A stretch of 63,816 nucleotides of DNA, the filler included, from Dugesia japonica (taxonomy: Eukaryota), in the NCBI GenBank assembly GCA_001938525.1. It is 6 parts of 6 records of this genome, joined end to end, with 100 filler letters (N's around TTAATTAATTAA, not from the genome) between each part and the next. Parts side by side here need not be neighbours in the genome. Positions count along the whole stretch, not along the records: positions 42,331 to 54,793 come from MQRL01598915.1; 5 more parts are not named here. One strand, given 5' to 3'. Within the stretch, counting starts at the first letter, position 1; each line of letters starts with the position of its first letter. Positions 32,144 through 60,029 of this stretch are shown here, one piece after another. The notes beneath the pieces were generated by a model. That model ran no database searches. It had not been told where the DNA came from and was given only the letters and a program-made list of their open reading frames with translations. The position numbers were made by a program, and so were the translations under genes.

Positions 32144-35100
32144 ATGTCACCGCATTGGTCAAACTCGAGATGTGCATATTTATCGACTTATTAGCCGCAT
32201 GACCATTGAGGAAAATATTCTGAAAAAGGCAAATGAAAAACGTTGCCTCAACGAAATGGCAATTGAAGGCGGTCAATTTAATATGTCCTTTTTCAAGTCA
32301 AATACCCTCCAGGATATTTTCCAAGCTCCTTCTGGATTTGAAAATTTAACGTCTTTAGGTAAAGAAACAGACCATATAAAAGTCTATAAAACAATTCGTG
32401 GGCGAACTATTCATTGGAAAGGAGATAATAGTATTATCAACATTCGAGCTAATAATGAAAATATGGAAACTAAAGATAAAGTAATCGATGCAACTCAATT
32501 TGAAGCTGCTTTAGAGGAAGTAGAAGATGAAAGTGACCGATTAGCAGCTAAGATAACTAGAGCAGAAGCTACGGCTGATTTAGTAGAATTTGATGAAACT
32601 GTACCATGGGATGATAGTGAAGAGTGTTCAGGAAAGAATGAAAACGAAGAAAACAAATTCAGATCGGAAATGGAAGTTCAACTTCAAAATTTCAATGCTC
32701 AATTAAATCCTCTTCAAAAGTATGGTGTAAGTTGGATTGAACAATCATGTGAAATCGTATTGTGTTCTCAAATAGAACTAGAAGAGGTTAGTATTTTTTT
32801 AAATACATTTTAATAAAATATTGGTTCCTAGACTCAAATTGAAAGCAATAAACAAGCATGGGAACTTGAACACATAAAAGCATTACATGAAGATGAGGAA
32901 GAAATAAAAAATATGGAAGAAGATGATATGTTGTATATATATGGACCCTATGATCCATATGCAGCTCAGAAAGAAGAATTAGAAAAGCTACGTAAAGAGG
33001 AGGAATTGCAACAATTACTTGACTTGCGCAAAGAAGAGGAAATGCTAAAAATAGAAAAAGATAAAGCAGCAGCACAAGCGTGGGCTCAAGAACAACATAG
33101 GAATGCATTAAAGAGAAAATCTGAAGTTATTATTGAAGTGGGGTCGTCTGAAAATACGAATAATACAGAAATGCCCAGAAGTTCCAAACAAAGAAAAGTA
33201 AATAGATTGATAAGTTAATGACGTTAACATTGGAAAATGTAATAGGTTATCGTACCACGATTGGAATTCCCCGATGAATCTATCACTACCGTAAAAACGA
33301 TAAACACTTGCATAGATGAAGTCGACCAGCCATTAATTTCCTCGAGTTCTAGCTCAGTGATCAATGACAAGCCATTTTCCACCCGGAGAAAAATTGGACG
33401 TTCTCCATGGAAGAATATTTCTCAGCGGTCATCCTCTGTAAAAAAAATGATAATCATTCGAATTTTTATATTTCATACTTTTAGGATAGAATTTACTCAC
33501 CTAAAGAACAAGAAACAATTAAAAACAATAGTTTCTCACGGAGAAATAATTCANNNNNNNNNNNNNNNNNNNNNNNNNNNNNNNNTTACAGGATTTTTAG
33601 ACTGATAAAGAAGTTGGCTGTAATATAGTGGCACAATCAAAAGCTTTTCCAAGAAGACGTTTCAGTGAATTCAATGAAAAAGTAAAACATTAGTCATTTC
33701 ATTGATTTTTTGAAGTAACATAATTATGTTTGAAGGATGTAGAGAAAAAAGATGATTGTGATTATAATCCTTCTCGGAGATCGTATTCAAGATCCGATCG
33801 TGCAAGTAAAGATTCTATGAAAAACACAATGGTAATTTATTTTATTTATTTTTAAAACAAACAATTTTCTTTGATAAATTTTTAAATTATTGATTTCATA
33901 AAAATTTTACAGAAATGAATTAAATCAAATTATTTTTTGAAAAGGTTTTAATCATTTTATGCTATTAATAATAACACGGTAAAAAAATACTAATATCAAG
34001 ATGGTAAGACAATAATTTCGATTTTAAAATGAAATAACTCAAAGAAAACTAAACTTTATTAATTAAAATACCAACTATTACAATCAACACATGCTTGCCA
34101 GCGAAAAACAAGCTTTCTCATACCAGTCGTATGGAAATCCTCTGATCTGGAATCAATAAATTCACAAATGGCATTTAACACAGAACCTTGATTTTTCAAG
34201 ACTTTTCCATCTAAGAAAACTGCAAGATTTCTAAAAAAAGTAATAATCAGTTGGTGGGAGGTCCTGCAAGTTGGAAGTTGAGCAAAATTTCGCAGCTTAA
34301 GTTATGTAACCGTCGAATTGTCATTTGCGCAACATGTGTCCGAGAATTGTTATGGAGTACAATAGGACGTTCTGTAGAGTAAAGGTGGATGAAAAAGTTA
34401 ACGACAAAAAATACTAATATCAAGATAGTAAGACAATAATGCCCGCTTTTGACCTTCAATTTTAAAAGGAAATAACTAAACTTTAAATGACAACTAAACT
34501 TTATTAATTAAAATAGCAAATATTACAATCAACACATGCTTGTCAACGGGAAACAAACTTTCTTATACCAGTCGTATGGAAATCCTTTGCTCTGAAATCA
34601 ATAAAGTCACAGATGGTATTTTCCACAGAATCTTGATATTTCAATACTTTTCCATTCAAGAAAACTGCAAGATTTTTAAAAAAGTAATAGTCGGTTGGTG
34701 GAAGGTCCTGCAAGTACGATGAGCAAAATTTTGCAGCCCAAGTAATGTAATCGTCGTATTGTCATTTGCGCAACATGTAGCCGAGAATTTTCATGGAGAA
34801 CAATTGGACGTTCAGAGTAAAGGTGAATGAAGAAGTTGAAACGTTTTTTGCATCTCGTCTATTAATTTGCAGTATTTGTCCGCTGTAATAGTTTCACTCG
34901 GAAAGAGAATGTTATAACGGAAAATACCTCCAGAATACTATTAAACGCTTACCATAACCTTCTTTGAATGAAGTTTGAATTTTGGCAATTGTTGTCGGGC
35001 TTGGTTATGGTGGCACGTCACTATCCGATTGATGAAAGGGTCGTAGATATTCCGGAGATGAAGAAGGCTTCAAAACTCCGACCTTTTCTTTTGAAGCCTT

Positions 35101-38100
35101 TAAACCAAGTTGATATTGCAGCTCTGTCAATGGTTCCCAAGTCTTTTACTGCACAAATTTAGGTTGATGTTGTTCGCGCACTTGTACCAGTTTTCAATGA
35201 AATTTAATTAAGGTTCTAATAGTAAATTTTCCCTCCTTTATATTTTACCAAAAAACATGAATAAACACGAAGTATACAATAGAAAATGTCAAACATANAT
35301 TTAATTGAAAATAATACATGATTATGTGACAAAATAATAAATCGATAAAAAGAATTCACAGAGAGTGTCTGTGAGCATTTAGGACACTATTATTCAAAGT
35401 ATTCTGATTAATTTATAAAATTTTATTTCAAACCAAACGAAATTATTATAAAATATGCTATATTTCTGTATTCATAAGATATATTTTTCAATATTTTGTT
35501 TCATTAACATAATTTTTCAGGAAACGAGCAATAATTTTTCTCCAACTAAAAGAGAATTTTCATATCCAAGAAGCACAGGACGTTTTTCTTTGAAAAACAT
35601 TTCGGTAAATTACTTTTATTTAATTTATTTAAAAAAAAATTTAGATCAATAAATCTAAATCACCTAATAACAAANNNNNNNNNNNNNNNNNNNNNNNNNN
35701 NNNNNNNNNNNNNNNNNNNNNNNNNNNNNNNNNNNNNNNNNNTGGATTTATTCATTATTTATTATCTTTCTTTAAGACATCTAAAGAACTAGAGAATCAC
35801 TCCGATCATATCGATCAAAAGGTATTATTTATCATTTATTTTTCATTCTTACTGATTTAATTCTTTTATTAAATATTATCTATTCTTCTATGAATTACCG
35901 TGTTTTCAAGAATCATTTTTGCAAAAATATCTGTTTAAAAATTAAAATTTTTATTCAGGGATTAGCACTTTTCAAATCTATATATTTCTGTTATAAATTG
36001 ATAAGATTGCCATTAAATTACAAAAAATTGATATATTTAAAAGAAGTAATCATTTCGCGAAAGTTCTTCAACTTAAATTAAAAGCTTTTTTGTTAAGTTT
36101 GTGACTTGCTTGTATATTTTAATGAAAAAGATAAAAAGCATTCTTAAATTTAACACTAGAACTACCGACAATATATACATAAAAATGACCGATAATGGTT
36201 AATAAAAGATACAAAATAGAATTACTTTTGTCTTAATGAAATTTTAGTTGAAATGAAATCCTCAATATTAATTAAAGCTATCTAATTAAAAATCTAAAAT
36301 ATTAATTTTCAAGATAAATATTGAAACCAGTCATTTTGACTGGTTCGGTAGTTCTAGTGTTTCCAGTTCTAGTGATTCCATGCATCGACTGAAAATTAAT
36401 TTTTTATGATTTGTTTTACAAGCACTTGCCCACTTGTTATGATCTCAAGCAAAAAAAATCATTTGCAAATCGATTTGATAAATTTACAAACACACATATT
36501 TGAAGAATAAATTTCATAATATGGGTATCCAAAAATTTATCGAAATTAGATGATTTTCGAAAAGTTAACATGATTAGGCACGCATGGAATGTAAATAATG
36601 CCATTTTTGGAAGTGCTTATGTTTATGAGCAACTATTTACCGCAATGAAAATAATAAAAAGTGATACAACCGTTTTAGACTAAGTTACATACGATTGGAA
36701 AGCTGTGTGCGAGTTTCTTTGTTATCTATATCTGCAAGTGCAGACCAATTGATTTCAAAGAAGCAAGCTCACACTTCTCATTAATATTTCTCTGTTTATA
36801 TTTCTATTAGAAAGTCTTTATTTTTTATTTTTATGCTCATATTTTAATGTTACATGCGATCATAACAAAATTTTTAAATTTGAAATTAACCCTTTGTAAA
36901 AATAATTGATAAATTTACTAAGGCTATCTATTAATTCTTTTTCAAAATTTAAGAAAGGTTATAATCGTAGAAATAAATGTAAATTTGATTTTCATAAGTT
37001 TTGACATTTGAGTAGTGAATTGACAATTTTTATTTTACCAAATCTAACAATAATTATGTATTAAATTTTCTTATTAATACTAAATTATGATTTTTCTTGT
37101 GATAGAACCATATTTCAATCAATACTTTGAATCGTATTGGTTCAAAGTGACATTTAAAAAATTTACTATATAATTCTAAGTTATATGGAATCTTTGACTA
37201 TAGATGATTTTCCCCTCCAAAATTTCGATTCATGTCAGAGCTAAAGTTAATATTTTGCTATATTTTCTAAGGCGGTTATACATATATATGTCAGTTTAGT
37301 TTTTTTTAAATTGTTTCATTAAATTATTTTTGTATTATTTTTACTATTAAATGACAGCTTAGCCTTTTCGTTATTGGAAGCGTATGTATATGTTTTTGTA
37401 TAAGTTTGCTCTATAAACGAAGAGCGTATGTTTCCGATTGTTATTTTTTGTATGTTTGAGAACGAGAAATATAAATATGTTTATTATGAAAAATATTTTT
37501 TGCTTAGCATTTTGATGTGTTTTTTACCTTTAAAATACTACGTAACTAAAGAGTTAAACAACAGTTTCGTGCAAGTCTTAATCTATTTTACATTTTTCAA
37601 TNAAGATAACACTTTCGTTAAATTAAAAAAAAATTAAGCTATACAACAGTATTTTCTATTAGCGTCAACATTCTCTTTTTTTAAGTAAATTACCAGCATC
37701 TATTTAAGGATCTTACCTATATTCAAATAGTTTTTGTGAAATATTAATTTAAATATTTTAAATTTAGCAAATTCATTTTAATCGATCTCCCGATGAGAAT
37801 ATTGCTCCTTATTCGAAAGAAATTTTTTGTTCATCCGTTTTATCAAGTCCTTTCAAGACTGGTAGAAATGTATGATATTTTGATTGAGTTTCAGATTTAA
37901 TTTTTCTACGTTTTATCGAATATTTAAGATTTTAAAATACTTATTAAATTGTAATTATTAATTCATGTAGTCTTAGAGACAATTTGACATTTATTGTTTT
38001 CTTCAACCGTGTTCATATTTATATAGAGTAAAATTAATGGCTTTTTATGTAGTTTATGTTTAGAATGTTTGGTGAATTACTAATGTATATATATAAACTA

Positions 38101-40546
38101 ATAAACTAAATCCGTATATTTTCAATAAATTCTGGAAATCTTTTGCAGTCTACCTAATCTTAATTATTAATAAAATAAATTCGTTTCTACTCATACAGTT
38201 AATAAAGTCAATTTATATAAATTAATTGGGCAATCTTGAGTATTCTATCCTAATATGAAAACAAGAATGAAAACAAACATGGAAAATTTTCCAATTTATA
38301 CTTCTAAGGTTATACGTAANNTTATACGTAATTTTCCTTCATATGGCCCGCAAATAATACCAGATTTTACAAATTCCGCGGAGGGTAAGGAATATAACGT
38401 TGCGTAAGTTAAGGTTGCTATAGCTCGCGCCATTACGGATCTCATTCTTTCACAGTATTTTTAAAGTAACTATGTGACGTAATCATTGAATTCGGGTAAT
38501 TTTTTCAATATAGATCAAATTATTAACGATGATTTTTAAAAATTAACATGGATTAAAGTATTTTAATATAGACTTTTATGCTTATTATGTAATTTTTGTT
38601 TTATTGTTCATCATTATTATCTTAAATTTATACACTCACATCTCGCTTTACGGTCTAGATAAGTTTCGGGAAAGCTATTCGTGAAGCAAAAATCCTTATT
38701 AAGAATAAACATCTATTTAAAAGTACACTAAAAAAACATCGTAGTGTACATTATGTTGTTTTCGTCCGTATAACTAACCACTTTATGAGCGTAAATCGAA
38801 AGAGTACCATAATAAAAATAAACCGTAAAGGCGAAAAGCCGTATAAAGAGCTGCCGTATAGGTATGCGTGTAAAATTATAATAAAATAAAATTATTATAA
38901 AGTAAATTTTGTAGTATTAATTTTAAAATTATCCAATTCACGATTAATATAATTTGATTGAATTGTATTTAGGGTATATTGAGTTGTTCGAAAAGTTCGT
39001 ATCGATTTTTCATGAAAAGTAACACATTTAAATTTCAAAATACATTTATTAAAGTACAGTTGCTATTTTCTTTTACAACATTTCTTCATCTTTCATCGAA
39101 CTTAAAGGTTCATCTTTTCAAAGTTTATCAGGTTTTCCAGCGAAAAAATTATCAAGATTTTTTATATCAGTTTTTTAAAAGTTTTTGTCATCTGGCGAAT
39201 TTCACAAAGTTCTAAAAAAGTGGAAATCTAAGGTTCCAATGTCTGGTAAATAAGACGGATGGGATAGTATTTCCAAACTGAGAAACAAACACTTTGTCTA
39301 GTAGCCATACGAGGACGCGGGTTATCATGATAAAACACTATTCACTTCCGATAGCCTAGTGTTGCACTTTTTCTTTCAATTTGTTTGTTTAATTTTTCTA
39401 ATTGTAAACAATAGTTTTCGTAATTTATTGTCCGATTAGTTGGTAGAAGCTCATAAAACAAAATTCATTTCCAGCCCCAGCAGACGCAGAGCATAATTTT
39501 TTTTTGAATGAAGACTGGTTTTCTTTGTAGTTAATAATCTTATTCGCTTTCTCCAATATCATTTCTACTAAACATTATTATAAATAATTCATTTCTCATC
39601 TCATGTCACTACTGGCTTTAAATATTGTGACGCTTCGTTGCACTTATAGAGCAAGTTACATATTAATTCCACTTAAATCGTGTGGAATTCACATGTCNNN
39701 NNNNNNNNNNNNNNNNNNNNNNNNNNNNNNNNNNNNNNNNNNNNNNNNNNNNNNNNNNNNNNNNNNNNNNNNNNNNNNNNNNNNNNNNNNNCAGTTATAT
39801 ATTAGAATATGCAAATACCTGACTTGTTTTCACAAATTCGTATGTATTAAAAACTGCTTTAATTACACATACTGAAAATAGGCACGAACTTTCCGGAAAA
39901 CACAATAGTTTAAAATAGTTAAATAACCTATTTTATTTCATATGTTTAAATAGACTTTAATCGAAAATATTAAATGTTTAAGGTTACAAGTGAAAATAGT
40001 TATAGGACCTATGATTCAAATGAATATGATGATTACGTTAATAGCCCTGTGCCATCGGTATCTAATAGTAAATCCAATGTTCTTGATGATCCATTTAAAA
40101 AGAAAAGGGGTCGACCTTCTATTGCTGATATCAAGGTAAAAATTTTCTTTAACTACTTTTTTATGAAGTTTTAATTTTTAAAGAAAAAAGCTTTACATCA
40201 TGAAACTTTGCGAAGAGATAGAAATTGTTCTGAATCGACTAATTCCAATGCAGTTCTAAATAAAAAGAATTCGTTTAAAATCCCTGTAAAAACGTTGAAT
40301 GGTGAACATAAATTGTTTTCTGCACCTCTATTGCTTCTGAAAACGAAACCTGTGTTTGTAATTACAAGGAAAATCGAAGATAGAGATGGTTAATTTACTT
40401 ATTATTATATTTATTATTTTACAAGGTATATTTTTTCAGGAAATGTATATACTCAAAATTTAACCTATCCTATTGATTGCAACGAAAAGTTCAATGCTAT
40501 TGCAACCAAATTATCCTCATTTGCGTCAACATCCTCTGGGAAATAA
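32144..40546 (+). CDS. SRCAP: 3' portion of a Domino/SRCAP/p400 (SWR1-class SNF2 ATPase) gene, multi-exon
   Basis: Helicase motif VI 'RCHRIGQTRDVHIYRLIS..TIEENILKKANEKR..LNEMAIEGGQF' plus the post-helicase 'QFEAALEEVEDESDRLAAK..AEATADLVEFDE' and 'QIESNKQAWEL' blocks. Inferred GT-AG exons: 32144-32786, 32832-33197, 33246-33437, 33485-gap, 33601-33681, 33736-33831, 35521-35604, 35645-gap, ~35777-35821, 39983-40135 (AT-hook KKRGRPS), 40184-40388, 40440-40546 (TAA). Exons after 33.8 kb are less certain. Confidence 0.88.
33982..35390 (-). mobile_element. Mariner transposase remnant in a Domino intron, with a ~424-bp tandem duplication of its 3' part
   Basis: 'RPIVLHNNSRTHVAQMTIRRL' corresponds to the mariner LHDNARPH motif and is present twice. 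Duplicated blocks start at ~33982 and ~34406. Confidence 0.8.
36154..36359. mobile_element. piggyBac-type MITE
   Basis: Perfect 14-bp TIR CACTAGAACTACCG...CGGTAGTTCTAGTG, preceded by TTAA (36150-36153). The right TTAA is degenerate. Confidence 0.75.
36380..36784 (+). pseudogene. hAT transposase C-terminal dimerisation-domain remnant
   Basis: 'AIFGSAYVYEQLFTAMKIIKS...LESCVRVS..DQLISKKQAHTSH*'. Confidence 0.75.
38979..39905 (-). mobile_element. Mariner-like element with TIRs and TA TSD
   Basis: TA-TTGAGTTGTTCGAAAAGTTCGTATCGATTTT pairs with AAAATAGGCACGAACTTTCCGGAAAACACAA-TA. Minus-strand 'YHDNPRP' and 'HPSY.PDIGT.DFHFF' remnants lie between. Confidence 0.8.
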
Positions 40547-42673
40547 AAAAAAATCTATTTAAAGAGCTCTTTGCAAACAATTATATTTAAACATTTGTAT
40601 TTGTGAATAATTTTTAATTATCAGATTCTGTATGTTTTTAAATATTAAAAAATTTAAAAATTTATATATAAATTGGTTTCTTAATTTTATTTTTTTAAAG
40701 TTTATTTATCGATTATTTTAAATACAGAGTAGGCCAAAAGTTACTTAATTTCTATCCAAAGTCGAAATTTGTGAACGCTCTGACGATCAGCATTTAAAAG
40801 ATATAATTTAAAAGGTGTCACTGAAATTTAACGTAAAAATAAAAATTATTTGTTACATTTTGAAATTTTTATTAAAAGAGGTAGCAAGTGTGACTTGGAA
40901 TTAAATAAATTCAAATTGTTTTTTTTTCCTCACAAACGACACCAGAACAGATTTGGAAATTCAATTTAATTAATCAAAAATAATTATCAGTAGGTCGATA
41001 GTGGCGCATGGGGACACCCCAGGGTTTTTTAAGGTCAATTTTACGCGTTTTGATCGGTTGAATTTTTTTGTGTGCCGATGATTTACTCATTACATAATCA
41101 CCTGATATTGAATTTTTTGTTTAAATTGACAGATTTTTTGTGTTTAAATTGATAATTAAATTTTGAAAATAAACTAGTTTTTGGTTTAACGCGGAATATT
41201 ACTCTGAACAAGAATATCAGCAAATAACTTTACACACCAAAGAAAATGAAAAATTTTAAATAATCAAGCACAGTTAAATAAATTTACCTCGAGCAATATT
41301 AAATTCGGTTGCTTCTGGGCAATATTAAAATCATTATCCCCCGAACAGACGTAATATTAATGTTAATATTAGTTGCACCGGGACAATCTTAATAATAATA
41401 ATATATAAGTAAATCAGAACGCAAGATTGATTGTTGATTAAACACATCATCAGTCATTTCAATCTTGATCTTCATTACAAATTAGATCTTAACAAAAAAT
41501 ATTTTTAATTTTAATTAACAAAATAAATTACCTTAAAATGTGCTTTTCATCCGAGTCTCATTCATTACGAGATCGAATAATATCCGCATAGCATGCTTAT
41601 GTTTTTGTTTTTACTATTTTGTCGTCATTATAAAACTAGTGATTTTTCTTTTCTATTCTAAATTGTTTTACTTAGACTTGTTGACTGTTATTTTAACAAT
41701 CAAGGTTCAACTGATTATTAATGTCAGCACTCTTAGCATTCATATTATTTGATTCGCTAAGAATATTACAACATTTTGGTCTCAAGAAAACCTGTTCTTT
41801 TTATTTATTTCTATTATTTTCATCCTTAAACTCTTCTACTACCGAATGTAGATCCATGCTGTACAGAGTGTGGTCTGGTGATTAATTTTAGGTATCTAAT
41901 AATCGATCTTTTACCATCAGTGACAATAACTTTTCTAACTTAATGTTTCTAACTTCTCAGGTAAAGTTATCAGATTCATATCTCACTATTTTCTTGTTAA
42001 CTATACTCCGCCAGCTCAATGTATACCCTGGTTTTGAGGGTATGAAGATATGAGAGTTGGAGGCCAAAGTGGAATGGCTCTGCACTGAGAACAAGCAACT
42101 GAGTAATAGGATACACAGTCGACCATCAACGTTCTCCTCAGTTTCTCGAACCAGAAAAGCACGGAAAATCTTCATAGACTTATCCGAAAATGATATGTTT
42201 GACAACTGAATTCTTGTTACTTTGTCAGCANNNNNNNNNNNNNNNNNNNNNNNNNNNNNNNNNNNNNNNNNNNNTTAATTAATTAANNNNNNNNNNNNNN
42301 NNNNNNNNNNNNNNNNNNNNNNNNNNNNNNAATTTCTTTAAAAATTTTTTATTTTGTTTTGTGTTTTTTTTACATATAATTTATGTTAAAAATATATATA
42401 TTATTTTTTTNNNNNNNNNNNNNNNTTAAAATTCATTCAAAAATGAACTAATTTTACACAATATTAAAAATTAAATTTTTTTCTGAACTAAAAGTTTTTA
42501 AAAGTTTGTAATTACCTGAAATGTAGCAATAAGGTACACAATTTAGTTTTTGAGTAGCTCAAAATGTAAAGTAGAGCATAGTTGATTAAATTGAAATTAT
42601 AGTATGGAGTAGTTGAATAAATTTGATTTTGGTATGGATCACCATAATTTTTATTGTAGTATTTATTTAGTAA

Positions 42674-43204
42674 AATGAAACAGAAACAAATGAAAATGAA
42701 TCGACATCTAACAGTAAACGTGGATCTTGACGACCGAAGTGCGGAGGTACCGGCACAAACAATTACCCAGATCAACCTTTAAATCCTTATTTTACAATAG
42801 AGAAATTGTTGGACAAACACTGCAGAAGCGTAATGAGAAATTCAGATGTATTAAATGAACAATTACAACAAACCCGACAATTAAATGCAAGCCTTGTGGA
42901 GAATCAAAATTTTTATGTGATGCAGATACATCGATTGAATAAGATATTGGAAAATCAGAGACGACAGATTACCGAGAATCAGAATTTTTACCTACAAACT
43001 TTGAGAGGAACAAACAAAATAGTAGAGGATCTAAGACATCAAGTGGAGGAGTTACAAGGCTATAAAGCAGAGCTGGTTTTATCCCAAAATAATCGACTAC
43101 CGAATATTTCCGGCATCCTGAACCCTATCGAGACGAGTGAGAGGGTGTGGTACGGAGAAGAGAGTAATGTATGACAATGGATGCCAAGATGTAGAGTACT
43201 GTAA
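42674..43204 (+). pseudogene. Orphan coiled-coil gene (array unit 1) with internal ENQNFY repeat
   Basis: The frame of ORF 42806-43174 extends upstream to a TTTAG acceptor at 42670 with one internal stop. The product is heptad-rich and contains ENQNFY twice. Confidence 0.55.
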
Positions 43205-43351
43205 ATTATGTGTTAAATAGTAACTGTATTACTATGCGAAAAAAAACATGTATTATAAAAACTAAAAACATTAAAAGTATAGTAAAAGTATATTGACAAC
43301 TATAATTATTTGATCAGCGCTTAATCAGAATAATTCCAATTTGTATATAGA

Positions 43352-43723
43352 ATGTCTGAAGATTTTTGAAGAGTGTGGAGCTGTGTTATGGATACGATAA
43401 TGATGGAGAAATCAAGTTTAGAACAGAAATCAATCGCAGAATTACAACAAATTAATCAAAAGATGAAGCATGGTAATGTGTCATATTTCGAGGAAATATT
43501 TGGTTATCAAAATGCCATCTTGAGAATAGAGGGAGTATTGACAATGCAACAAGCAAATAAAGATGATAAAAAGTGTGGAGAATGTTAAATGGAAGCATTT
43601 TCAGTATTAAATTTACCATACGTGCATGTAGCAGTTTGTCAGAAATGTCATCAAAGAAACGAGTTCAAACAAAGTGTAGTATGTAAACGGCCAATTGAGG
43701 AGTGGTATGTGATGTATCTATGA
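43352..43723 (+). pseudogene. Small protein with C-terminal IAP/MDM2-type RING finger (decayed)
   Basis: Read-through gives MSEDF*RVW...DDKKCGEC*MEAFSVLNLPYVHVAVCQKCHQRNEFKQSVVCKRPIEEWYVMYL*. This fits CxxC-x(n)-P[C>Y]xHxxxCxxC-x8-[C>S]xxCxxPI at the extreme C-terminus. Confidence 0.75.
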
Positions 43724-43924
43724 GTGGGATACATGGTTAAATTGTAAATAAACGCAAATTTAGGATACAGTACAGTTAAAGTAACAAAAGAAACAACTCT
43801 ATACAATTTGTAAATATTAGTCTCAATTAAAATTTGGTTAACCAGTAAATTATATAATTTGTAACTCCCAATGTCTTAATGTGTAAAGATTCAATATTAT
43901 GTTACTTGTATTTTAATTAAGAAA

Positions 43925-44790
43925 ATGACATGCAGATATCAAAATAGTATGAATCGACAACGAGTCGCGATTAATAGATATTGTGAGAAGAGTAACCCGA
44001 CCAACAAAGACAACTCCCGTCAAAGTTACGAATCGAAAACCCATGAGAACAAAGTGAGTGAGCATAAAAACGGTGTAGAGTCACCGAAGTTACAATCAAA
44101 GATAGTCGAACGAGAGAATCAAGTTGAAAAGTTGGAAATCCAATTACAACAATCCAAGTTCAAAACCCAAGGCTACGACAAGTGATTGGAGGGCCTGAGA
44201 TCAGTGGAAAAAGGAATATTTAGCCAAAGAAGAGAAAATCCATCAACTACAACTGGAGCTATCATCCATCCGAAAAAGGCACCTAGAGCAGGTCAAAGAG
44301 TTAGAAACTGAGATCAGAGGGCAGAGTAAAAAGATCAAGATGCTTGAGAAAACAGTGGAGAATAATAATGAAATCCGAATTACCAACCAACGAATGCACC
44401 AAGAAAAAATAAGCAAATTACAGGAAGAGATCGATCGTTTAATAAAAGATACTCAGGACAAAAAATCCGCAAGAGAACAAAATGTTATCGAAATTCAAAA
44501 CCTGGAGAATGCAGTGAAGCACCTCCATGATGAAAATAATTTTCTAAAAGAAACCCCTATTTGAGTACTAATTCTTCCACGTCAAGTAAAAGCTACCAGC
44601 GTAGAACAAATATTTTACACTTATAAAATCCATATGCAACCTGTAGCTCCACAAATCAGTTTATTGGACCAAAGAGCGAATCAGAGAAAGAAGAATCAAG
44701 TGATTCAATCATCCCGCCAATTCACCAATCCAAGTCAATCCAATCAATGGCCTAATTCAGCATCCGAAGAAGATTTATTCTGGCGTCTCT
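43925..44790 (+). pseudogene. Orphan coiled-coil gene (array unit 3), frameshifted
   Basis: Consecutive E/K/Q-rich heptad ORFs at 43925-44185 and 44340-44564, followed by a P/Q-rich tail. Confidence 0.5.
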
Positions 44791-45517
44791 AACCCAGTCG
44801 TTTCGAGCAGTTCTAGGCTGCGTCCGACTCTGTAAATATTGTTCGTATCTAGGTGTTATAACTCAATATATTTGTGTGATTGAATAATTTCAAGTAACCA
44901 AATGTCCTCTGACAGTCCTATATTGTCCATTTGGTCATGTTATTGAACTATAAACGTCCTATTATTTTCAATCTATACCCAACCGATTCAGTGTTCCGCA
45001 GTTCTATGCTGCATTAATACCTATACTATCCTCGAGCCGAAGGTGTCCTCCGAATCCAATCTGTCGATTAAGAGAAGATCCAAACCAGTAGACTTTATGA
45101 CTATTTAGTGATTCCATGGTGATGAGAATTCAACATTTTTTATTGTATTAAAGTGATCAGGTTATTTAAAGTGACAATTATGAATAAAACATTGAATTTT
45201 AAGTGATCCAGTGGTGTGATTGAATATGATAGTAAATCTGCATGTGCATTATTATATTTGATTGAAATAATGTATTTTTAATTTTATCATTTTCTCTTCT
45301 TATTTCTATCTGTGTTTATTTTTATGACCTATTAGTATCTTGCTTGAGGAATCTGTCTAACCTAGGTATGAGTGATAATCGAGCTCTCGTGAATTTCGTA
45401 AAAGGTTAAAAGAAAAAGAATTTTAAGTTTCCAAAAATAGTGAAGAGTGAACACAAAGTTGATGGTCTGGACCAAATTATTGATTATTATGTACAGGATT
45501 ATCATTATTATTATGTA

Positions 45518-45562
<45 letters not shown>

Positions 45563-45724
45563 NNNNNNNNNNNNNNNNNNNNNNNNNNNNNNNNNNNNNN
45601 NNNNNNNNNNNNNNNNNNNNNNNNNNNNNNNNNNNNNNNNNNNNNNNNNNNNNNNNNNNNNNNNNNNNNNNNNNNNNNNNNNNNNNNNNNNNNNNNNNNN
45701 NNNNNNNNNNNNNNNNNNNNNNNN

Positions 45725-45784
<60 letters not shown>

Positions 45785-46976
45785 GGAAATATCGTAAAAA
45801 TAACGAAAAATAAAATTCGGGCGTGGAAGACCCAAATTTTATGTCACAAAATTAAAAATTGTATGCGATAAAAGGAAAAGAAGAATTAAATAATAAAAAT
45901 AAACTACGATATTATAATATTATTTTAAAGGGGTATCTACGACCCGTTTCATTTATTATAAATAACGCTAAATAACGTTTAATATTAATTATATTTTAAT
46001 TGATGCTGGTCCAGTCATCATTCCTTGTCTAGCTGAGGAAAAATAAATCGAAAATAGTCAGCAAAACAGCTGAATCATTTCCTTCCAGACAAAGACTTTG
46101 CATGGAGATAAAGTTGATGATTCTGAAGTCACACGATGTGACTGACGACAACAAAACCTAGCAGGTTGATGTGCACCAAAATAACAAAAAATCATACTGA
46201 GAAAATGAATGCACATCAACAGTGGCTAGGAGTCGATCAATTACAGGGGTGGAATTAGGAAGGGCGAATAATGATTGGCCGGCTAATATGAAGCCACAAT
46301 CTGGAGAAGGAGAATTCAAATAAAATAAAGTGAATTTTTAAATTCAGGCAGAGTTTTTGAATTGAAAACAATTGTGACTTTAAAAAGATTTTTACTTTAT
46401 AAACCATTTTACTTTAAACAGAATTTTTACTTTGAAGAGATTTTTCTAACGAATTTGCGATTAACAGTTGTCATATTATTTTGGGACATTAGATATCGAG
46501 CTAACAACATTAAAAAATTAATTTACCAGATTGTAAAGTGGACCTATAAACTTAAAAGTAAATTTCATTTTTGTTTTAACATGTTAATTGCTCCAATCTT
46601 TATGTACCGAGTGTTCTTTAAGCAATGATGATCGTGCTCCCGAGAATGAAATAGTTATGAGAAAATAATTCGGCAAGAATACCTAAATATGTATTGTAAA
46701 CTTGTCGAGAGCTCGATGATCATGCGTTACGCGAGAACAAGATAGTTTTTGTTTTTGGAAGGAATGGTTTTGTAAATGAGTGCAGTTATGTCTTAAAAGC
46801 TTTTATTGTTTTGAACGAAAATATCAACATCATATAAACGGAATTTGATTTTTCTTTAATTAGTTGATGATTTTCTTTTAATGCTTTCGAATAATAATAT
46901 TTTTTTATTTAATTATATGTTTATTAGATTATTTTAATAATGTGAATAATTCAAGTTGTAGTCATATAATAATAAG

Positions 46977-47601
46977 GACATCTTCTGAGAATTCCGGAAG
47001 ACGGGAGACGAGCGAAGATGGTAGTTTCTAGCTGATATCTTCTCTGGTTCGCCTTCTAGAAATGAGGATGAAGAACAGAAAGGCCGCAGGCTGAAGGAAT
47101 GTCCGCTGTTTATTATTTTTATTCTTATTTGATTGAAAATATATTTAATATTAATAGTAGAAAATTAGATACTTTTTATTTAATAGAAAATAGACAGCGT
47201 ATTTCAAGGCACAGATTCCATTGGTGCTCTCCAATGACGGCGACGACGGGACATTCTGTATCCCCTGGAGAAATTCAGTCGAGCTTCTAGATTATCAAAA
47301 AGCCGTTTACGAGAAGGAGAAACAGGAGATGCGAGCGGGTCAGCAAGTGTTAATAAAGCCTGACATTGAGTTGCGGCGACAATGGAAAACCGTCTATGTG
47401 GAGAAGGAAAAGTTGGAGGTGCAATTGGCACAGCAGAGACTGGAGATATGAGTGATTGCCAGTGAAATGATCGAGCACCGCTACACAATGGAGAAGATCG
47501 AGGGGAAAATTTTAGAGCAGCTGATGGATGATAAGGGGGTCGTGACCGAAGCACCGGACCCCGTGATCATTAAAACGGAATCGTTGTCGACTGTAAAATA
47601 A
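46977..47601 (+). pseudogene. Orphan two-exon coiled-coil gene (array unit)
   Basis: GC-richer coding-like blocks separated by an AT-rich intron-like spacer (~47108-47186). ORF 47221-47451 reads through one TGA to ~47600 and is followed by AATAAA. Confidence 0.5.
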
Positions 47602-47907
47602 ATGTATTGATGTTGTACAAATGAAAGTGTTATTTATTTAATTTCTTAATGTGATATGTATGTCACATTGTGGTTAAAAGAAATTTTAGTGTCTGCAGAG
47701 GCAGTAATAAGTTTAAACGAATTTTTACTTTTTATTTGGCCGTTGTAAAAAACGCAAGCACGGTTTTAATACTGCGTCTTCAATAATTTGCTGTCGTGGA
47801 TAAGCAATTTACCTATAATTTTTGTCTTTTACTTGATTATAATCACTTATCTTAGTTAAACTTATTACAATTAAATTATGACTAAAAAGGTTTTTGTTTT
47901 TTTAGTA

Positions 47908-48228
47908 GTGAATAGATCTAATGAAGAAAAGATGCTGAAAAAAGATGTAATCGCCGCGCAGTAGAGGTGGAAGTAGGAACGGAAGGAGTTAAAACATGAA
48001 ATTTTGAAGCTGTAGGGACAAGTGATGAAGTCTGTCGTGAAATATAATCAGATCAAAGAAAAAGAGCTGTCCCCTCAGCACGCGAACAGGCTGATGGCTG
48101 AGGTTATAAAGACTTACACCGACCGCGAGACCTCAATGTTTATTTCGTTAAGAACACTCTGGTTAAATTACCGATCGCCAGAGGAATCGACCAAAGCAAT
48201 GGAACCAACCGTAGATCCATACGCTTAA
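47908..48228 (+). pseudogene. Orphan coiled-coil gene homologous to 62883-63241
   Basis: Frame AQ*RWK*ERKELKHEILKL*GQVMKSVVKYNQIKEKELSPQHANRLMAEVIKTYTDRETSM, with AATAAA right after the stop. Confidence 0.55.
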
Positions 48229-48564
48229 TAAATGAAGCCGTAGCTGTTAATAATTGAATAAATATTATGGATGTTGATTGATTGGGTCAGTTTAATTATG
48301 AATTTTATTTGTTGAAGTGAAACTATAATATTAAACTTTTACTGAGCGCGTAAAAGTGATTGCTGTCAGGGTTCGTGGATTCTGTGAAAAAGACGCGATA
48401 CCACAAAGTCGCGCTGAACCCGTGGAAAGGAGGGGCACGTCACAGAGGTGATGCAAACTTTTGAGGTTTTTAGGTTGCTCCTAGATACTTCGATAAAAAC
48501 GATAATTATTAAAAGTGAGATCAGAGCAGCTAAAGAAAAAAGTTAAAACATCAAAATCCTAAAA

Positions 48565-50165
48565 ACCCATCAGATATAAAATTGGAATATAGGAAAGAAT
48601 CGCTTCATACAAATGTGGATATGTTGTCAAGGAGTGAATGCGGTACATATGCACAATGTATAATGTTACATGAAGATCCCAAAAGTAGAAATTAAAAACA
48701 AGGATCATAAATATAGTAGATATTCAAGAAAAACAAGGCAATTTTGGTGAGAATGATGAGGGAACACGGATACCTGATGATAAAGTAGAAGATGTTATAA
48801 TGAGGATACATCATTTTTAGTGTCGTGCTGAAGCAAAAAAAGTAGCAGCGTATAAAAAGCATAATTATAATGCAAAACATTTGTAGAGCAAAGTACAAGA
48901 GGTTGTCCGAAGCTGTATAATATGTCAGAAAGCTAAAGTGTTGACAATAAAAACAAAGGAAGAAACAAAAAAGACGCAGCCAGCCGAAATGTATAAACTG
49001 TTATTTATAGAAGTGTGTGGACCACGGCCGGAGACTAGAGTTCGGAAAAAACATGTTCTCGATATAATAGACCAATGCAGTAAGTATGTAGCCTTGATAG
49101 AAATGACAAAACAAGAGGAAGATACCATAAGGAAAGCAATATTGGAGAAGTGGATATTAAAGTTTGGGTGTCCGAAAGAAATTCAAATTTATTGTGGAAG
49201 AGCTTTTGAGTCAAAATCAATGAAAGGTTTTGCAGCTGAACATGGAATTACACTCAGGTTTTCGAGTCCATGTCATCATAACACAAATGGACAAATCGAG
49301 GGATCTGATTAATGCAACACTTAAAGAAAGGAAAACTTCAGATTTAGGTGGATGTTTTGCCTGAAATAGAATTTACCTTAAACGCTACAAAACAGAAAAC
49401 TATCGGGAAAATCTCTGCTGAAATCATATTTGGAAAGAAAATAAGCAAAAAAATGGTATGAAACCAATACTCAAAAAGTGCACAAAGAACAAGAGGAAGA
49501 AATGTTAACCAAAAGACAATTCAAATCGGTGATGAGATCTTAGTGAAAGCTGAAACAAGAAACAAGAACTAAAATCATTGTGAAGGACCCTATAAAATCA
49601 AGAGGAAGATTCATGACAGACGTTACATCCTAGAGGATACAAACAGAAAAAGTCTCGAAAGAAACCTAGAGAAGATCAAAAATTTCTTAAAAAGTGGGAT
49701 GTGAGTATGTTTTAAGCGAGTTGAAATTTTTGTGTGGTTGGTGATCGTTTTTCTTGAAATCTTTTTTGAAAAAGATTTAAATTGAAATGAAAAATTAAAT
49801 GACTAATAAGAAATTGTTTTAAATTTTAATAAGTAAACAGAAAATTTATTTAAAAAATCTGTTTTAAAAAATCAAATGACTAATAAGTANNNNNNNNNNN
49901 NNNNNNNNNNNNNNNNNNNNNNNNNNNNNNNNNNNNNNNNNNNNNNNNNNNNNNNNNNNNNNNNNNNNNNNNNNNNNNNNNNNNNNNNNNNNNNNNNNNN
50001 NNNNNNNNNNNNNNNNNNNNNNNNNNNNNNNNNNNNNNNNNNNNNNNNNNNNNNNNNNNNNNNNNNNNNNNNNNNNNAAACGATCACCAATTTAAAACAG
50101 GAATTTAATTTGTTTAAAAACTCAATTAGTGTTGTTATAGTTTTTTATATTAGTAAATCGTTGTA
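48565..50165 (+). mobile_element. Gypsy integrase region plus 3' LTR (same family as 57102-59590)
   Basis: Integrase core 'IEVCGP..IIDQCSKYV..WILKFGCPKEI..SSPCHHNTNGQIE' and a GPY motif. A PPT-like AAAAGTGGGA is followed by the LTR start TGTGAGTATG at ~49700, similar to 59328. Confidence 0.85.
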
Positions 50166-50243: not shown

Positions 50244-50795
50244 TTATGTTTTCAGGATTATCAGATGCATCTTTTGGTGTTGTTTATATACTAGAATGAA
50301 TTGTATTTTTATAACCATTTTATCTAACAAGTTTTTATTCCATTTTTGATTTCCAACTAATGTAAAATATTTCCACATTTTAGTTTTTAAAGTTCTAATA
50401 AATCTTTCAGTAAAAACTGATTTACTCTCATTTTCTGTATGGTATAATTTAATATCATTTTCTTCAAGAAATTTATCAAAATATTTTGATCTAATTGATG
50501 ATTCCTTGTCAAACCAAATATAATTTGGAATTCTAAAATTTTCTTCAAATATATTTTCATAACCTTCTTTTAATGATTCGTGATTTTTATTAGTCATTGT
50601 AACACAAAAACGAAATCTTGTATATAAATCAATACAAACTAAAATATAACGAGATCCATCACTTGAGTTTTTAATATCACAACCCCAAGTATTATCTTTT
50701 TCTTTTATTATTACTTTTAGGAAATAATCTTTAAATAATTCCTTAGGAAATAATCTTTATATAATTCCTTGGCAAGAAGTTTCTTTGATAATGTT
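50244..50795 (-). pseudogene. Maverick/Polinton (adintovirus-type) retroviral-like integrase
   Basis: 'LLAKELYK...KVIIKEKDNTWGCD..RYILVCIDLYTRF..PNYIWFDKES..IKLYHTENESKSVFTERFIRTLKTKMWKYFT' is the characteristic Polinton integrase signature. Confidence 0.88.
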
Positions 50796-51220
50796 TCTCT
50801 ATTTTTAGGAATATGGCCAGCACCTAAAATAATTTTACCTTTCATTACTAATTTTACTAAACCTCTTTGTAATTTTTTGAAATAGCTGGATTTTGGATAT
50901 TATTTAAATCATGAATTAAATTTACATCAGCTTAATGCCTTGATCGTATATTTTCATCTTTATAAGATAAATCATGTTTAAAAGCTGCTTCATCAACTCT
51001 ATTAAGTGGTTCTTCTTCAGGTTTCAAATTATTATTTTCATCTAATCTTAAATCTAATCTTGTTCATGGACCTGTATAATTATGGTTAAACAAATGTCTT
51101 TCACCTGGATACTTTTCCCAAGTAAATGGTTTTAAAATTGCAGTCATGGTTTATAAGCTAAATGGCTTAATTTTACTGAATAATAATTTCCTGAATCTAA
51201 AGTTGTTTTTGAAACCATTC
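50796..51220 (-). pseudogene. Parvovirus VP1u-like phospholipase A2 (adintovirus PLA2X)
   Basis: Manual translation: PFTWEKYPGERHLFNHNYTGP*TRLDLRL..EPLNRVDEAAFKHDLSY..SRH*AD..KGKIILGAG. It contains the YxGPG Ca2+ loop and the DxxAxxHDxxY catalytic motif. Confidence 0.85.
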
Positions 51221-51224
51221 TATT

Positions 51225-52490
51225 TAAAAATGAAACTTGAATAGATTTATGTGTAATTAGTTTGTTCAACATATTTACTTCCATTTTTGAAACTAATCTA
51301 CATTCTGGAATATATAATTCTAAAGTTGTTTATTTTAAAGTAGCAGCTGTATATTTATCACCGTAAAATAATAATTTATCATTTGTTTGTCTATTACAAG
51401 TAAATTCAATCATTACATTATATAATAATCTATTATAACATTTTAAAAATGCAAACAAATTTTTTAATGAAAAATAACCTTCAAATTTTTTTTAGAATTA
51501 TAAAGTTTCTTTCTTTTATAAAAACCTAGATTTGCTCCCCAGCTAGTAACATCTAAATCTCCTTTGTTTGTATCTGGAATCCATCCTGATAATTCTCCAT
51601 ATATATTTTTATAGGTTGAACTAGTTGAAATAAAATTCAACATTGTTGATGATATTCCAGGATCATTAATTATTTCCACATCTGAGGATCCTAAAGTTAA
51701 TCTCATCGATTTAAATAAACTTGGAAGCCAATTATTTTACAAAGTTATTTTATCTTTGTGAGCATCTGTAACATCAATCTCTATTTTAAAATATAACATT
51801 GAGTTACAAATGTCTAATGGGTTGGTTGACTGTAAAGATTGAAAAACTATATCACCAGAAGGCATTAAATTACTAATTGATCCAGATGAAGGTGAAATTA
51901 TCAAAACAAACTAAAAGTCCAGTTGTTGGATTCCGGATCTTAAAAAATATTTTATCTTCAATACAAACGCCGGTTTCGGCAAAATAGGAGCAGTAATGTC
52001 GCAGAAAGATGTCAACGGCAGAGAAAAGGTGGTAGCATACGAGTCATACTCATTAAACAATAATTAAAGAGGCTATTGCGTGACAAGGAAGGAACTTCTA
52101 GCTATATTTTACTTTTGTAAACATTTTAATTATTATTTATTTGGTAGGAAATTTTGGTTACGCACAGATCACATGGAACTAGAGAAACCTAGGACGTGGA
52201 GGCTGAATGTAGTAGAGAAGAACCCGGACAGCGAGACATAAAGAATGTCAGAAAAAGAAGCCGAGGAGAAATACTCACACACGTGGTTCCGGAAAANNNN
52301 NNNNNNNNNNNNNNNNNNNNNNNNNNNNNNNNNNNNNNNNNNNNNNAAGATTGAAAAACTATATCACCAGAAGGCATTAAATTACTAATTGATCCAGATG
52401 AAGGTGAAATTATCAAAACATCATTTTTAAGAAAAAAGTGTTAAAAATTAATATTATTATCAATATTTAATTTTGTTGCATCAAACATTT
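51225..52490 (-). pseudogene. Maverick/adintovirus major capsid protein (double jelly-roll), truncated; interrupted at 51909-52346 by Gypsy sequence and a gap
   Basis: 'NNWLPSLFKSMRLTLGSSDVEIINDPGISSTMLNF', 'GFYKRKK', 'YNRLLYNVMIEFTCNR' and 'LELYIP' match the Polinton MCP pattern. It is adjacent and co-oriented with PLA2 and integrase. Confidence 0.7.
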
Positions 52491-52607
52491 TCTTTACTGA
52501 TAAAATAACAAAATAACAAAACCAGATTAATAGTGATAACTACGAATTTTTTGTTGACGAAATGTGTACTGATATTTTTATTGCAAAGCTGTGAACTAAA
52601 AACCTAC

Positions 52608-52805
52608 AAGCCAAAAATACAAGCCAAAAATAAAAGTCAAAAATACAAGCCAAAAACACAAAAGCCTTGGTTCTTTTAATTCTCAATTCTGTTCCACTGG
52701 TATTGACTTATGTTGTACTAATAATGATAACCCTCTTTTTTTCCTATGTAATCACTGCTTAATTTCTGTTCCACTAGTATTAAAATCTGTTGTACTGGTA
52801 TTCTC
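52608..52805. repeat. Short tandem repeats (13-bp ACAAGCCAAAAAT x~4; TTCTGTTCCACTGGTATT-like x3)
   Basis: Directly visible. Confidence 0.7.
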
Positions 52806-52962
52806 TTATCATTTGCACTGTAATGAAGCCAACTCTCTCGGCTCACATTCGTAGTTATCACTATTACTAATATCGTTGTTTTAATATTCAGATTTCGGAT
52901 AGGTAATATTTTGAATTAATAAATTAGTTATGGATTTGACTTCAATTTTAATCAAATTAACA

Positions 52963-54793
52963 TGGTAACCACGCCTGTTGACCCATTGGCCGAAAGATTA
53001 CTACCAAAGATGTTGAGCCGGACGGACCATTTGGAGGTTTTAATCAATCAATGCCAACGGTATTTTGACATTCTGGCAAAGCCGAAAAGATGCGTGAAAC
53101 GTTAATATACAGAATGATCGAGGAAAATTGGATTGCCGACTAAGAAAGAACGGTAGCACAAGGAGAAGGGTTCCAATCATGATTGAGAATCGCATTTGAG
53201 AAGCCCAAGCAGATTGGGAAGAGATGCTCTGATATAAAAAAGGATCAGAGAGCATCCAGCTATACTTTCGAGTTGTGAAAAGGAAAATTTGAAAATTATA
53301 TGAAAATCAAATAACCGAAAAACAAATGATCGCAAAAGGTTTGGTATATTGCAGTGGCAATGATGAAATGAACAAGGAAGTGGAAATCCGAGAATAAGCA
53401 TCAGTCTAGGATATTGAGACACTAATGATAAAGATGGACGAAGTACAGACGAAAAGTAATTGTAGAATCAATGCAGTACGAAACTATAATGAAGTACTAA
53501 AAGGAAATAAGAGACAAGTTTGGGCAGTTTAACCGAGAACTGACAGGAAGACCAAATGCGGAGAACCAACCAGAAACAAGACAGAAGAGAAAACATTTGT
53601 AAAAAACACTACCAGAGAAATTCACATTAGACAGATAGAATGTTGGTCGTGTCACAAGATGAAAGACATCAGCCGAGAATGTCCGAACAGAGAGATACTA
53701 AAGTGTTTCACGTGTAGACAGGCAGAGCACATTCATTGATTTTGTCCAAATAGCAAGTGTAGAAAGAAAGGACATTACGCGGTAGATTGTCAGATACAGA
53801 GAATTTACAGCAGTAACAACTTGGAGAGGGACGACCACAGACATCAAAACAGAGTATGGTGTGAAAAATATAGAATGAACGGAATAAATGCAGAAGATCA
53901 GGAAGACACGACAAGTTTAGAGAACTACCCAAATAGACAAGCTCTAGTCAATTAAGTACTGTGACTATGATACCCCAAGTGAACGAGAGAAGTGAATTTG
54001 ATCAGGAAGTGGCAAAGAAGGTATATATATTTTTGAAGAGCGAAGGCTTTAGGACAGAGGAAGAAAGAGACAACAATGTGATAGGAGTAATTGGATACGT
54101 TTCCGGGACAATAATAAACTACGAAAAATGCAGGGGAGACCCAGAGTCACGGTTAGGATAGTTAAACAGGTTTTTGAGTGCTATTTAGATACAGGAGCCT
54201 GAATAAACGTGATGAGTTTGAATATAGCAAAGGAGTTGTAAAAAAACTTAAGGAGCTTTTAAGGGATTTGCAATTATCACCACAAATTCATAGAAGGATA
54301 CTCGGAAAAAGCAGGAATTCTGGGAAAGATGTGTGGAAGAACTACCAAGAAACTAGACTGGAATCAAACAGCAGAGAAAGAATTCGAGAATTTAAAAAGG
54401 GCACTTACTAAAAGTCCAGTTGTTGGATTCCGGATCTTAAAAAATATTTTATCTTCAATACAAACGCCGGTTTCGGCAAAATAGGAGCAGTAATGTCGCA
54501 GAAAGATGTCAACGGCAGAGAAAAGGTGGTAGCATACGAGTCATACTCATTAAACAATAATTAAAGAGGCTATTGCGTGACAAGGAAGGAACTTCTAGCT
54601 ATATTTTACTTTTGTAAACATTTTAATTATTATTTATTTGGTAGGAAATTTTGGTTACGCACAGATCACATGGAACTAGAGAAACCTAGGACGTGGAGGC
54701 TGAATGTAGTAGAGAAGAACCCGGACAGCGAGACATAAAGAATGTCAGAAAAAGAAGCCGAGGAGAAATACTCACACACGTGGTTCCGGAAAA
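52963..54793 (+). mobile_element. Degenerate Gypsy element: PBS-like start, gag zinc knuckles, protease, RNase H
   Basis: ..AACA-TGGTAACC at 52963; CWSCHK..ISRECP and CFTCRQAEH knuckles; LLDTGA*INVMS; FIFNTNAGF..IGAVMSQ..YCVTRKELLAI..RTDH. Confidence 0.85.
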
Positions 54794-59590: not shown

Positions 59591-59745
59591 NNNNNNNNNN
59601 NNNNNNNNNNNNNNNNNNNNNNNNNNNNNNNNNNNNNNNNNNNNNNNNNNNNNNNNNNNNNNNNNNNNNNNNNNNNNNNNNNNNNNNNNNNNNNNNNNNN
59701 NNNNNNNNNNNNNNNNNNNNNNNNNNNNNNNNNNNNNNNNNNNNN

Positions 59746-59791
<46 letters not shown>

Positions 59792-60029
59792 GTAATAATA
59801 ATTATAATAATAATGATAATAATAATAATAATAATATATATGAGGAAATAATTAGTAATTAATAATATCATCCGATGGAAATTGAGTTATCTGAATATTA
59901 ATATTGAAATTCTAGTATTTCAATATTATTTATCTTATGAAACATGGGTTGTAGAAGTAAAATAAACAATGTCTAAAAATATTAATTGTGATTTGCAAAA
60001 TGATTTACCAATTGAAGATTTACTTAACA

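Follow-up and report, generated by a model that had tools for sequence, protein, structure and literature searches.

A decayed BIR-less RING ORF in a Burro-type Ty3/gypsy retroelement of Dugesia japonica, probably an independent capture of an IAP-type RING

Introduction

What is the RING-coding frame that lies behind a stop codon at positions 43352–43723 of the window, a stretch of 63,816 nucleotides of Dugesia japonica DNA? It might be a hidden gene, an exon of a host IAP or the cargo of a mobile element. A first-pass annotation favored mobile-element cargo, namely a BIR-less RING gene of the IAP type, and pointed to an anti-apoptotic cargo protein of a giant retrotransposon in Schmidtea. Such a precedent exists. 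BIR, RING-related, and BCL2-like motifs are known in Burro elements (PMC6431247, Section 7 for the cargo), and the accessible part of PMC13465017 reports that B-IAP, the BIR+RING cargo of Burro1, protects planarian stem cells and aids regeneration. That Burro elements can carry IAP-type cargo has already been published, and the addition here is a BIR-less version. The explanation that we consider likely as a whole is that the locus derives from a BIR-less helical-RING cargo, captured independently from a host, whose product would be a dimerizing ubiquitin-ligase module directed against host defense or death.

Results

Structure and decay of the window copy

The features of the locus are listed in Table 1. 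Read on the plus strand, the frame at 43352–43723 consists of a short N-terminus, a TGA, 72 codons leading to KKCGEC, a TAA, a C3HC4-like RING, and a tail. The C-terminal RING with an IAP-like hydrophobic tail that had been predicted behind the TAA is present, and the two mutated zinc ligands are Tyr at 43619 and Ser at 43673. The peptide with X at the TAA matches Pfam zf-C3HC4_3 with an E-value of 2.4e-4, so the suggested scan does return the domain, though its 21.3 bits fall short of the curated 27-bit cut-off. No BIR domain was found in the window copy.

Table 1. Features of the element fragment and its RING ORF in the window
Feature	Position	Strand	Basis or remark
Burro-type Ty3/gypsy LTR retroelement, 5′-truncated (3′ fragment of ~6 kb)	42510..48569	+	Family matches start and end there
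ORF A (accessory, coiled-coil), with an early frameshift in the window copy	42696..43174	+	Sequence comparison
AG one base before the ATG, putative splice acceptor	43349..43351	+	AG in 23/31 motif matches across loci
Decayed BIR-less helical-domain and C3HC4 RING ORF	43352..43723	+	173 codons in the sole stop-free copy
First premature stop, TGA	43367..43369	+	Five codons after the ATG
Junction of an in-frame ~147-bp deletion, within a short direct repeat	43567..43587	+	Comparison with spanning loci
RING domain and hydrophobic tail	43574..43720	+	Contains the TAA at 43586; ligand changes at 43619 and 43673
ORF C (accessory, coiled-coil), interrupted by frameshifts and stops	43925..44792	+	Sequence comparison
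3′ LTR, ~3.1 kb; start approximate	45420..48569	+	Inverted termini, and start from other copies
Small ORF remnant in the LTR	47194..47448	+	49% identity to 5′ LTR copies; no Pfam match
Second small ORF remnant in the LTR	48016..48228	+	54–63% identity to 5′ LTR copies; no Pfam match

The position of KKCGEC should be noted. The fragment 42510–43587 is 78–86% identical to 29 other loci, 24 of which span the site, and all 24 have an extra ~130–149 bases there (mostly 147). As assembled, the window copy has lost ~147 bp (49 codons) in frame, and since this deletion creates the join, KKCGEC is a junction product. The first-pass annotation was right that the ORF track ends there at a TAA, but had noticed neither the deletion nor the upstream TGA. 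Read-through or recoding of the window ORF is ruled out by the two different stop codons and by the other copies breaking at different places, which makes the window stops private decay. Judging from the two stops, the deletion, and the two lost zinc ligands, the window copy is a dead, decayed remnant, and a working gene hidden behind a stop codon finds no support at this locus.

RNA reads were examined over 6.4 kb in three runs, of which 25%, 25%, and 6% were read. At 80% likeness, 727, 53, and 52 reads are found, respectively, and the depth over the two RING bins is 0.25–3.2 in one run and zero in the other two. In the best run, 7 of the 727 reads are 99% alike. No splice joints were seen over the 6.4 kb in these partly read runs. 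Splicing of ORF A to the RING ORF was considered and rejected, as by our reading the phases of the most evident donor (43169) and acceptor (43350) do not agree, and RNA joints were not seen. Rfam gives no match in 42331–48700.

Copies of the RING ORF and selection

The RING ORF is repeated in the genome. A DNA search with 206 candidates, 40 of which were scored, gives at least 71 matches, and a protein search with 229 candidates, 150 of which were scored, at least 149. These at least 149 matches, with diverged stop-free relatives that clear the zf-C3HC4_3 cut-off (32.7–41 bits), make the family more than a chance resemblance. At E ≤ 1, the domain is recognized in all 24 aligned relatives. One intact paralogue of the kind sought does exist: locus L013 has a stop-free ORF with all eight RING ligands, scoring 26 bits, just below the cut-off. 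However, after 43 loci were compared, of which 34 cover at least 300 bases, and three near-duplicates were dropped, 30 of the remaining 31 copies contain a stop or frameshift.

The absence of a BIR, as first proposed, extends to the family. The BIR profile has no match in 81 family stretches (426 kb, partly overlapping), whereas it finds 21 of 21 controls, and Pfam BIR is absent both from the element RING protein (P0002) and from the top 25 families for 24 aligned relatives.

The proposed comparison of substitution rates is informative. The pairwise dN/dS is 0.31 in frame (465 pairs of the 31 copies), against 0.88 and 1.25 in the shifted frames. The reverse frames give 0.37, 0.71, and 1.27, the first of which mirrors third positions. 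Divergence at the three codon positions is 0.153/0.114/0.224 in the RING ORF and 0.134/0.086/0.214 in ORF A (24 copies). The dN/dS method ignores transition bias, and therefore the contrast between frames, rather than the value itself, is the evidence for selection. The spacer between ORF A and the RING ORF was tried as a neutral control; it has a codon-position bias of its own (0.146/0.079/0.128), so the shifted frames were used instead. The pattern among copies indicates purifying selection on the RING ORF during the active period of the family, followed by decay of the copies. A short conserved CxxC peptide, which overlaps the end of ORF A at 43170–43220, recurs in several copies; together with the spacer bias, it possibly marks a further small exon or ORF.

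With these copies at hand, it is hardly tenable to regard the window ORF as the terminal exon of a single-copy host IAP, or as a gene that is still live by read-through. The acceptor-like AG before the ATG and the resemblance of related single-copy loci to terminal exons fit a host exon, but dozens of dispersed copies are colinear with the element ORFs and the LTR, and this copy number and context refute it. Against a live gene stand the lesions described above and the small share of near-identical reads.

The carrier element

In other copies, the LTR start with its inverted termini lies after ORF C; because the LTR begins only there, the RING ORF is located in the internal region between two coiled-coil ORFs. 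In the window copy, the start of the 3′ LTR is deleted and its last three bases are missing, and the 5′ LTR of another copy matches it from 45729. A sharp LTR 3′ end followed by a primer site is found at 89 genomic sites (control 0; other LTR families included). We take the primer site behind the 5′ LTR to be of the tRNA-Pro type.

On three single contigs (L105, L093, and L104), the RING ORF lies behind RT-RNase H or integrase, in agreement with the view that a mobile element carries it. The pol regions of L105 and L093 are 85–92% identical (L104: 74–78%) to those of contigs with gag and env, on which gag is followed by a long insert, BCL2-like sequence, a fusion protein of the Monjiviricetes type, two proteases, and dUTPase-like sequence. 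This is the Burro order, where BCL2-like and fusion-protein regions lie between gag and protease and a dUTPase-like region precedes RT (PMC6431247, Section 7). The BCL2-like, env, and dUTPase-like regions were located in L274, L281, L284, and L286 by tblastn with sister-lineage domains, which themselves match Bcl-2 (E = 0.002), the fusion protein (1e-77), and dUTPase (5e-4); a fusion-protein match of 2.2e-19 is found in L283. The link from env to RING goes through overlapping pol; no single contig joins the two, and the one candidate (C583123) runs into other sequence beyond the membrane ORF. LTRs, primer site, and the PR-RT-RH-IN order of Burro-type elements are all present in the RING family. 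Burro-type elements exceed 30 kb and encode a single polyprotein of ~5,000 amino acids; the pieces of the RING family sum to roughly 25–30 kb, a figure from a fragmented assembly and broken copies, with gag to RT taking ~9.7 kb in L274 and the LTR ~3.1 kb. MATH/TRAF, SUMO-like, and ankyrin motifs are further Burro features; no Pfam matches to them occur in four gag-env insert segments and three further segments. The membrane ORFs after integrase were considered as env-like and rejected, as they have no fusion-protein match and the real env precedes the protease.

Several other properties of the elements were observed. The 3′ LTR start is preceded by no plain purine tract in L036, L037, L089, L096, L112, L113, L116, L188, and L189. 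Instead, the stretch before it resembles the reverse complement of the 5′ primer-binding site (13 matches, nine contigs), so that the terminal inverted repeat reaches past the LTR into internal sequence; this extension could pair the two genome ends or reflect unusual plus-strand priming. The sister lineage described below has an ordinary purine-rich tract at this place. Two tandem aspartyl-protease domains are found in both lineages (L283:3393–4205 (−), L278:7544–8754, and L195:464–1123), separated by CCHC knuckles in the RING family. Four copies (L035, L089, L091, and L108) are internally deleted, with env and RT gone and gag, proteases, and membrane ORFs kept; the RING ORF is also kept where the contig reaches. 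Their common layout suggests non-autonomous replication.

Other features were noted elsewhere in the window. A Maverick/Polinton fragment with an integrase and, judged by eye, capsid-like remnants (50244–52043, minus strand) is inserted among remnants of a second, unrelated Ty3/gypsy family (48570–49783, 51910–54793, and 57181–60919), two integrase pieces of which are 84% identical. Positions 51910–52296 are a perfect duplicate of 54407–54793. The plus-strand exons at 32136–40547 presumably encode, judging from motifs, the C-terminal portion of an AT-hook-containing chromatin remodeller of the Domino/SRCAP type. Pfam gives only a weak INO80F match there, and the gene seems to end ~2 kb before the element fragment.

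A sister lineage with BIR-RING in the same slot

BIR domains are frequent in the genome, with at least 150 matches listed of 360 candidates. The large contigs with BIR are elements with the layout of the RING family and a BIR-RING ORF in the same slot. In L195, L200, and L201 the order is integrase, membrane ORF, coiled coil, and BIR-RING, and a second coiled coil follows in L195 and L201. By joining contigs L197, L195, and L196 (C645809), a near-complete BIR-bearing Burro-type element is obtained: primer site, gag, BCL2-like region, fusion protein, proteases, dUTPase-like region, pol, membrane ORF, BIR-RING, and the start of the 3′ LTR.

The RT/RNase H of the BIR-bearing elements is 62–67% identical to that of L105. 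The best of the 120 listed public matches reaches 48%, and no Burro sequence is among these 120. In a quick RT/RNase H tree of 26 rows, from which one locus with fewer than 140 aligned residues was left out, the RING-linked and env-linked rows group with an SH-aLRT value of 99, the BIR-linked rows with 100, and both together with 100. This topology indicates that RING-family and BIR-RING elements are sister lineages in separate clades. One membrane ORF after integrase matches between the lineages (hhalign probability 88.9%), while ORFs A and C match their counterparts weakly (6.4% and 0.6%).

Since both lineages end this slot with an IAP-type RING, the RING ORF could be the BIR-RING gene of the sister lineage after loss of the BIR and divergence, and a single capture would then suffice. 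The sequences speak otherwise. P0002 resembles the BIR-RING of L201 in the RING region only (28% over 58 amino acids, E = 0.013), whereas its similarity to the best single-copy locus, L097, extends over 153 amino acids (33%, E = 3e-30). The helical-domain profile has no match in the BIR-RING ORFs (E = 0.16 or worse), and grouping of the element RINGs with BIR-RING is rejected by the AU test with a modest p-value of 0.024. BIR loss from a shared gene is thus highly improbable.

Relatives of the RING and its source

Four loci without stops, present in single or low copy, align with P0002 from end to end. For L097 there is no near-identical paralogue; within the genome it is closest to the element copies, and its upstream flank contains an unrelated fold-back repeat and mostly unique DNA, not element DNA. 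Six stop-free helical-RING loci in single or low copy were observed in all (L097, L098, L099/L100/L190, L101, L102, and L103), in AT-rich, intron-like surroundings; L102 has two modules in tandem.

In a tree of 41 rows built against IAPs, as had been suggested, the six element rows form a group (100/100) that joins L097 and two database proteins (83/95); all of these lie within a BIR-less clade of 31 rows (95/94), apart from BIR-RING, which is placed loosely beside true IAPs (86/84). Many branches of this unrooted tree are long, and the L097 grouping is not starred, so that the direction of transfer has to be argued from context. We infer transfer from host to element from the single-copy, stop-free, and intron-like contexts of the relatives. 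L097 could also be an element gene that was domesticated.

Searching 1.84 billion proteins with a profile gives 25 matches at E ≤ 1e-10, many of them unnamed ORFs of 100–220 amino acids. One relative, P0009 (153 amino acids), adjoins a packaging ATPase on metagenome contigs L212–L214, with a Maverick-type integrase on two of them. L212 and L214 are Maverick/Polinton contigs with a BIR-less RING, and L212 has TRAF-MATH and dual-specificity phosphatase cargo besides. A scan of viral contigs with P0009 found no relative. A word-index protein search with P0002 found nothing (nine candidates), nor did one with alignment A2 for longer proteins at E ≤ 1e-6, a weak piece of evidence; from these empty searches, neither a full-length host protein nor a BIR link can be given for the single-copy loci. 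Judging from these relatives, an unnamed small helical-RING family occurs as single-copy loci, as LTR cargo, and as Maverick cargo.

The Maverick copies raise the question whether the RING gene came by way of a Maverick/Polinton DNA virus, or whether the single-copy loci are themselves domesticated mobile-element genes. The genome has many Mavericks of its own, with ATPases 64–78% identical, and many more relatives are stand-alone ORFs of 130–190 amino acids, all of which would suit such a route. However, none of 15 own Maverick loci checked has the ORF, and no Maverick gene was matched on the contigs of the single-copy helical-RING loci. Searched with the Maverick protein, the genome yields nothing beyond the LTR family, the single-copy loci, and weak RING matches, and the Maverick and LTR copies, ~21–25% identical, are not sisters in the tree. 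We consider such a route quite unlikely and prefer capture from a host gene family.

Fold and contact residues of the RING protein

The predicted model of the element protein (pLDDT 83.9) comprises a helical domain, a long helix, and the RING. The best structural matches of the RING are BIRC7, MUL1, IDOL, and cIAP2 (Z 6.0–6.6; Foldseek E ~1e-3), and the sequence profile ranks cIAP2 and cIAP1 first. The helical domain aligns with the post-BIR region of IAPs in register at a GY/FGY motif; the alignment is weak (15.8% probability), with none of 100 shuffles scoring as high, and is only suggestive of a UBA. Among the 50 listed rows of a wide fold search, generic helical-bundle matches and no UBA entry are found, and an atlas search with residues 20–120 gave no usable match.

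The counterparts of the E2-contact residues should be noted. We took the cIAP1 contacts, including Val573 as an E2 contact, from the accessible part of PMC6349121. In the alignment, the counterparts of cIAP1 His588, Ile604, and the linchpin Arg606 are His, Val, and Lys, respectively. The counterparts of Val573 and Met575 are Glu, the former in 26 of the 29 unique copies that cover it, and the Pro in loop 2 is absent. Because of the Glu at the Val573 position and the lack of this Pro, E2 binding by the element RING may be weak. In cIAP2, Leu585/Ile590 is the E2-binding mutant pair and Val568 a dimer residue, according to the accessible part of PMC3172091; the counterparts of the pair are hydrophobic, and that of Val568 is so in most copies.

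These residues bear on whether the RING, with the same carrier and origin, was a decoy that would pair with host IAP-type RINGs or the sister BIR-RING and alter their turnover, recruiting no E2. The two Glu residues and the missing Pro agree with a decoy, as do the retained aromatic tail and the mostly hydrophobic Val568 counterpart. A heterodimer model of the cIAP1 and cIAP2 RINGs is proposed in that same part of PMC3172091, and the closest relatives of the element RING are single-copy genes of the same genome. On the other hand, the Leu585/Ile590 counterparts stay hydrophobic, the linchpin is cationic, and several non-element relatives also have no equivalent of Val573, so this contact may not matter in the family. 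A decoy has a minor but real chance of being correct.

Discussion

The identity of the locus as a remnant of an IAP-type RING ORF, captured independently, seems to us likely. Given that much, we lean slightly toward an active E3 rather than a decoy, a choice that depends on aligned residues. The steps that we envisage are as follows. A host gene family would have been the source of the gene, in a capture separate from that of the BIR-RING gene in the sister lineage. Its protein would be translated from a spliced subgenomic RNA, with the AG before the ATG as a candidate acceptor, and would dimerize via the aromatic tail. The helical domain might bind substrate or ubiquitin, and the resulting IAP-type ubiquitin-ligase module could dampen host defense or death signaling. 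Having no BIR, the element protein would not inhibit caspases directly, and its gene cannot act as Burro1 B-IAP is said to. The RING ORF, lacking a BIR, is not an IAP, and the carrier is not Burro1 itself.

An IAP-type RING was probably captured a second time, independently, when a sister lineage filled the corresponding slot. That this position holds a different RING, one with no BIR, indicates that cargo can be exchanged and has been acquired repeatedly, and comparing the two lineages offers a natural way to ask why a BIR was kept in only one of them. More speculatively, Burro-type elements may have an exchangeable "host-control" slot, filled either by a caspase-blocking BIR-RING or by an unrelated BIR-less decoy RING that lost an E2 contact and acted on IAP ligases of the host or of rival elements; with the RING family also in Mavericks, this would be a common anti-defense module of retroelements and DNA elements in animals. 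As a whole, this broader scheme is rather unlikely to hold.

We found no BIR-less RING of the Burro lineage in print, though Lee et al. 2026, Grohme et al. 2018, or their supplements may describe one in Burro-2, -3, or -4. The accessible parts of PMC8532177, PMC11410931, and PMC13238120 contain nothing bearing on the RING. The GAG-ENV-POL errantiviruses of Platyhelminthes (PMC13524379) resemble the present elements in having a fusion protein between gag and pol; the accessible part of that paper makes no mention of RING, accessory ORFs, or Burro.

Among known RING proteins, cIAP1/2, XIAP, BIRC7, and the BIR-less IDOL/MYLIP and MUL1 share with the element ORF the C3HC4 spacing, the helix leading into the RING, and the aromatic C-terminal tail. 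Unlike metazoan IAP-type RING E3s, the element ORF has Glu at the Val573 contact and lacks the loop-2 Pro, and unlike metazoan IAPs it combines the missing BIR with an N-terminal helical domain that has no clear known match. Accessory genes of Maverick/Polinton elements are also comparable: IAP and Bcl2 homologues of adintoviruses are mentioned in the accessible part of PMC8502044, and a BIR-less relative lies beside ATPase and integrase genes on the metagenome contigs, but the carrier here is an LTR retroelement and the copies are not sisters. The closest system is Burro1/GYPSM1 of Schmidtea mediterranea, compared here by the published description of its layout. It is likewise a large Ty3/gypsy LTR element with the same domain order and an IAP-type RING. 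Its B-IAP resembles the cargo of the sister lineage in Dugesia japonica, which has BIR plus RING, whereas the RING family differs from Burro1 in having no BIR, a short 173-codon ORF with its own helical domain, membership of a different gene family, and decayed copies.
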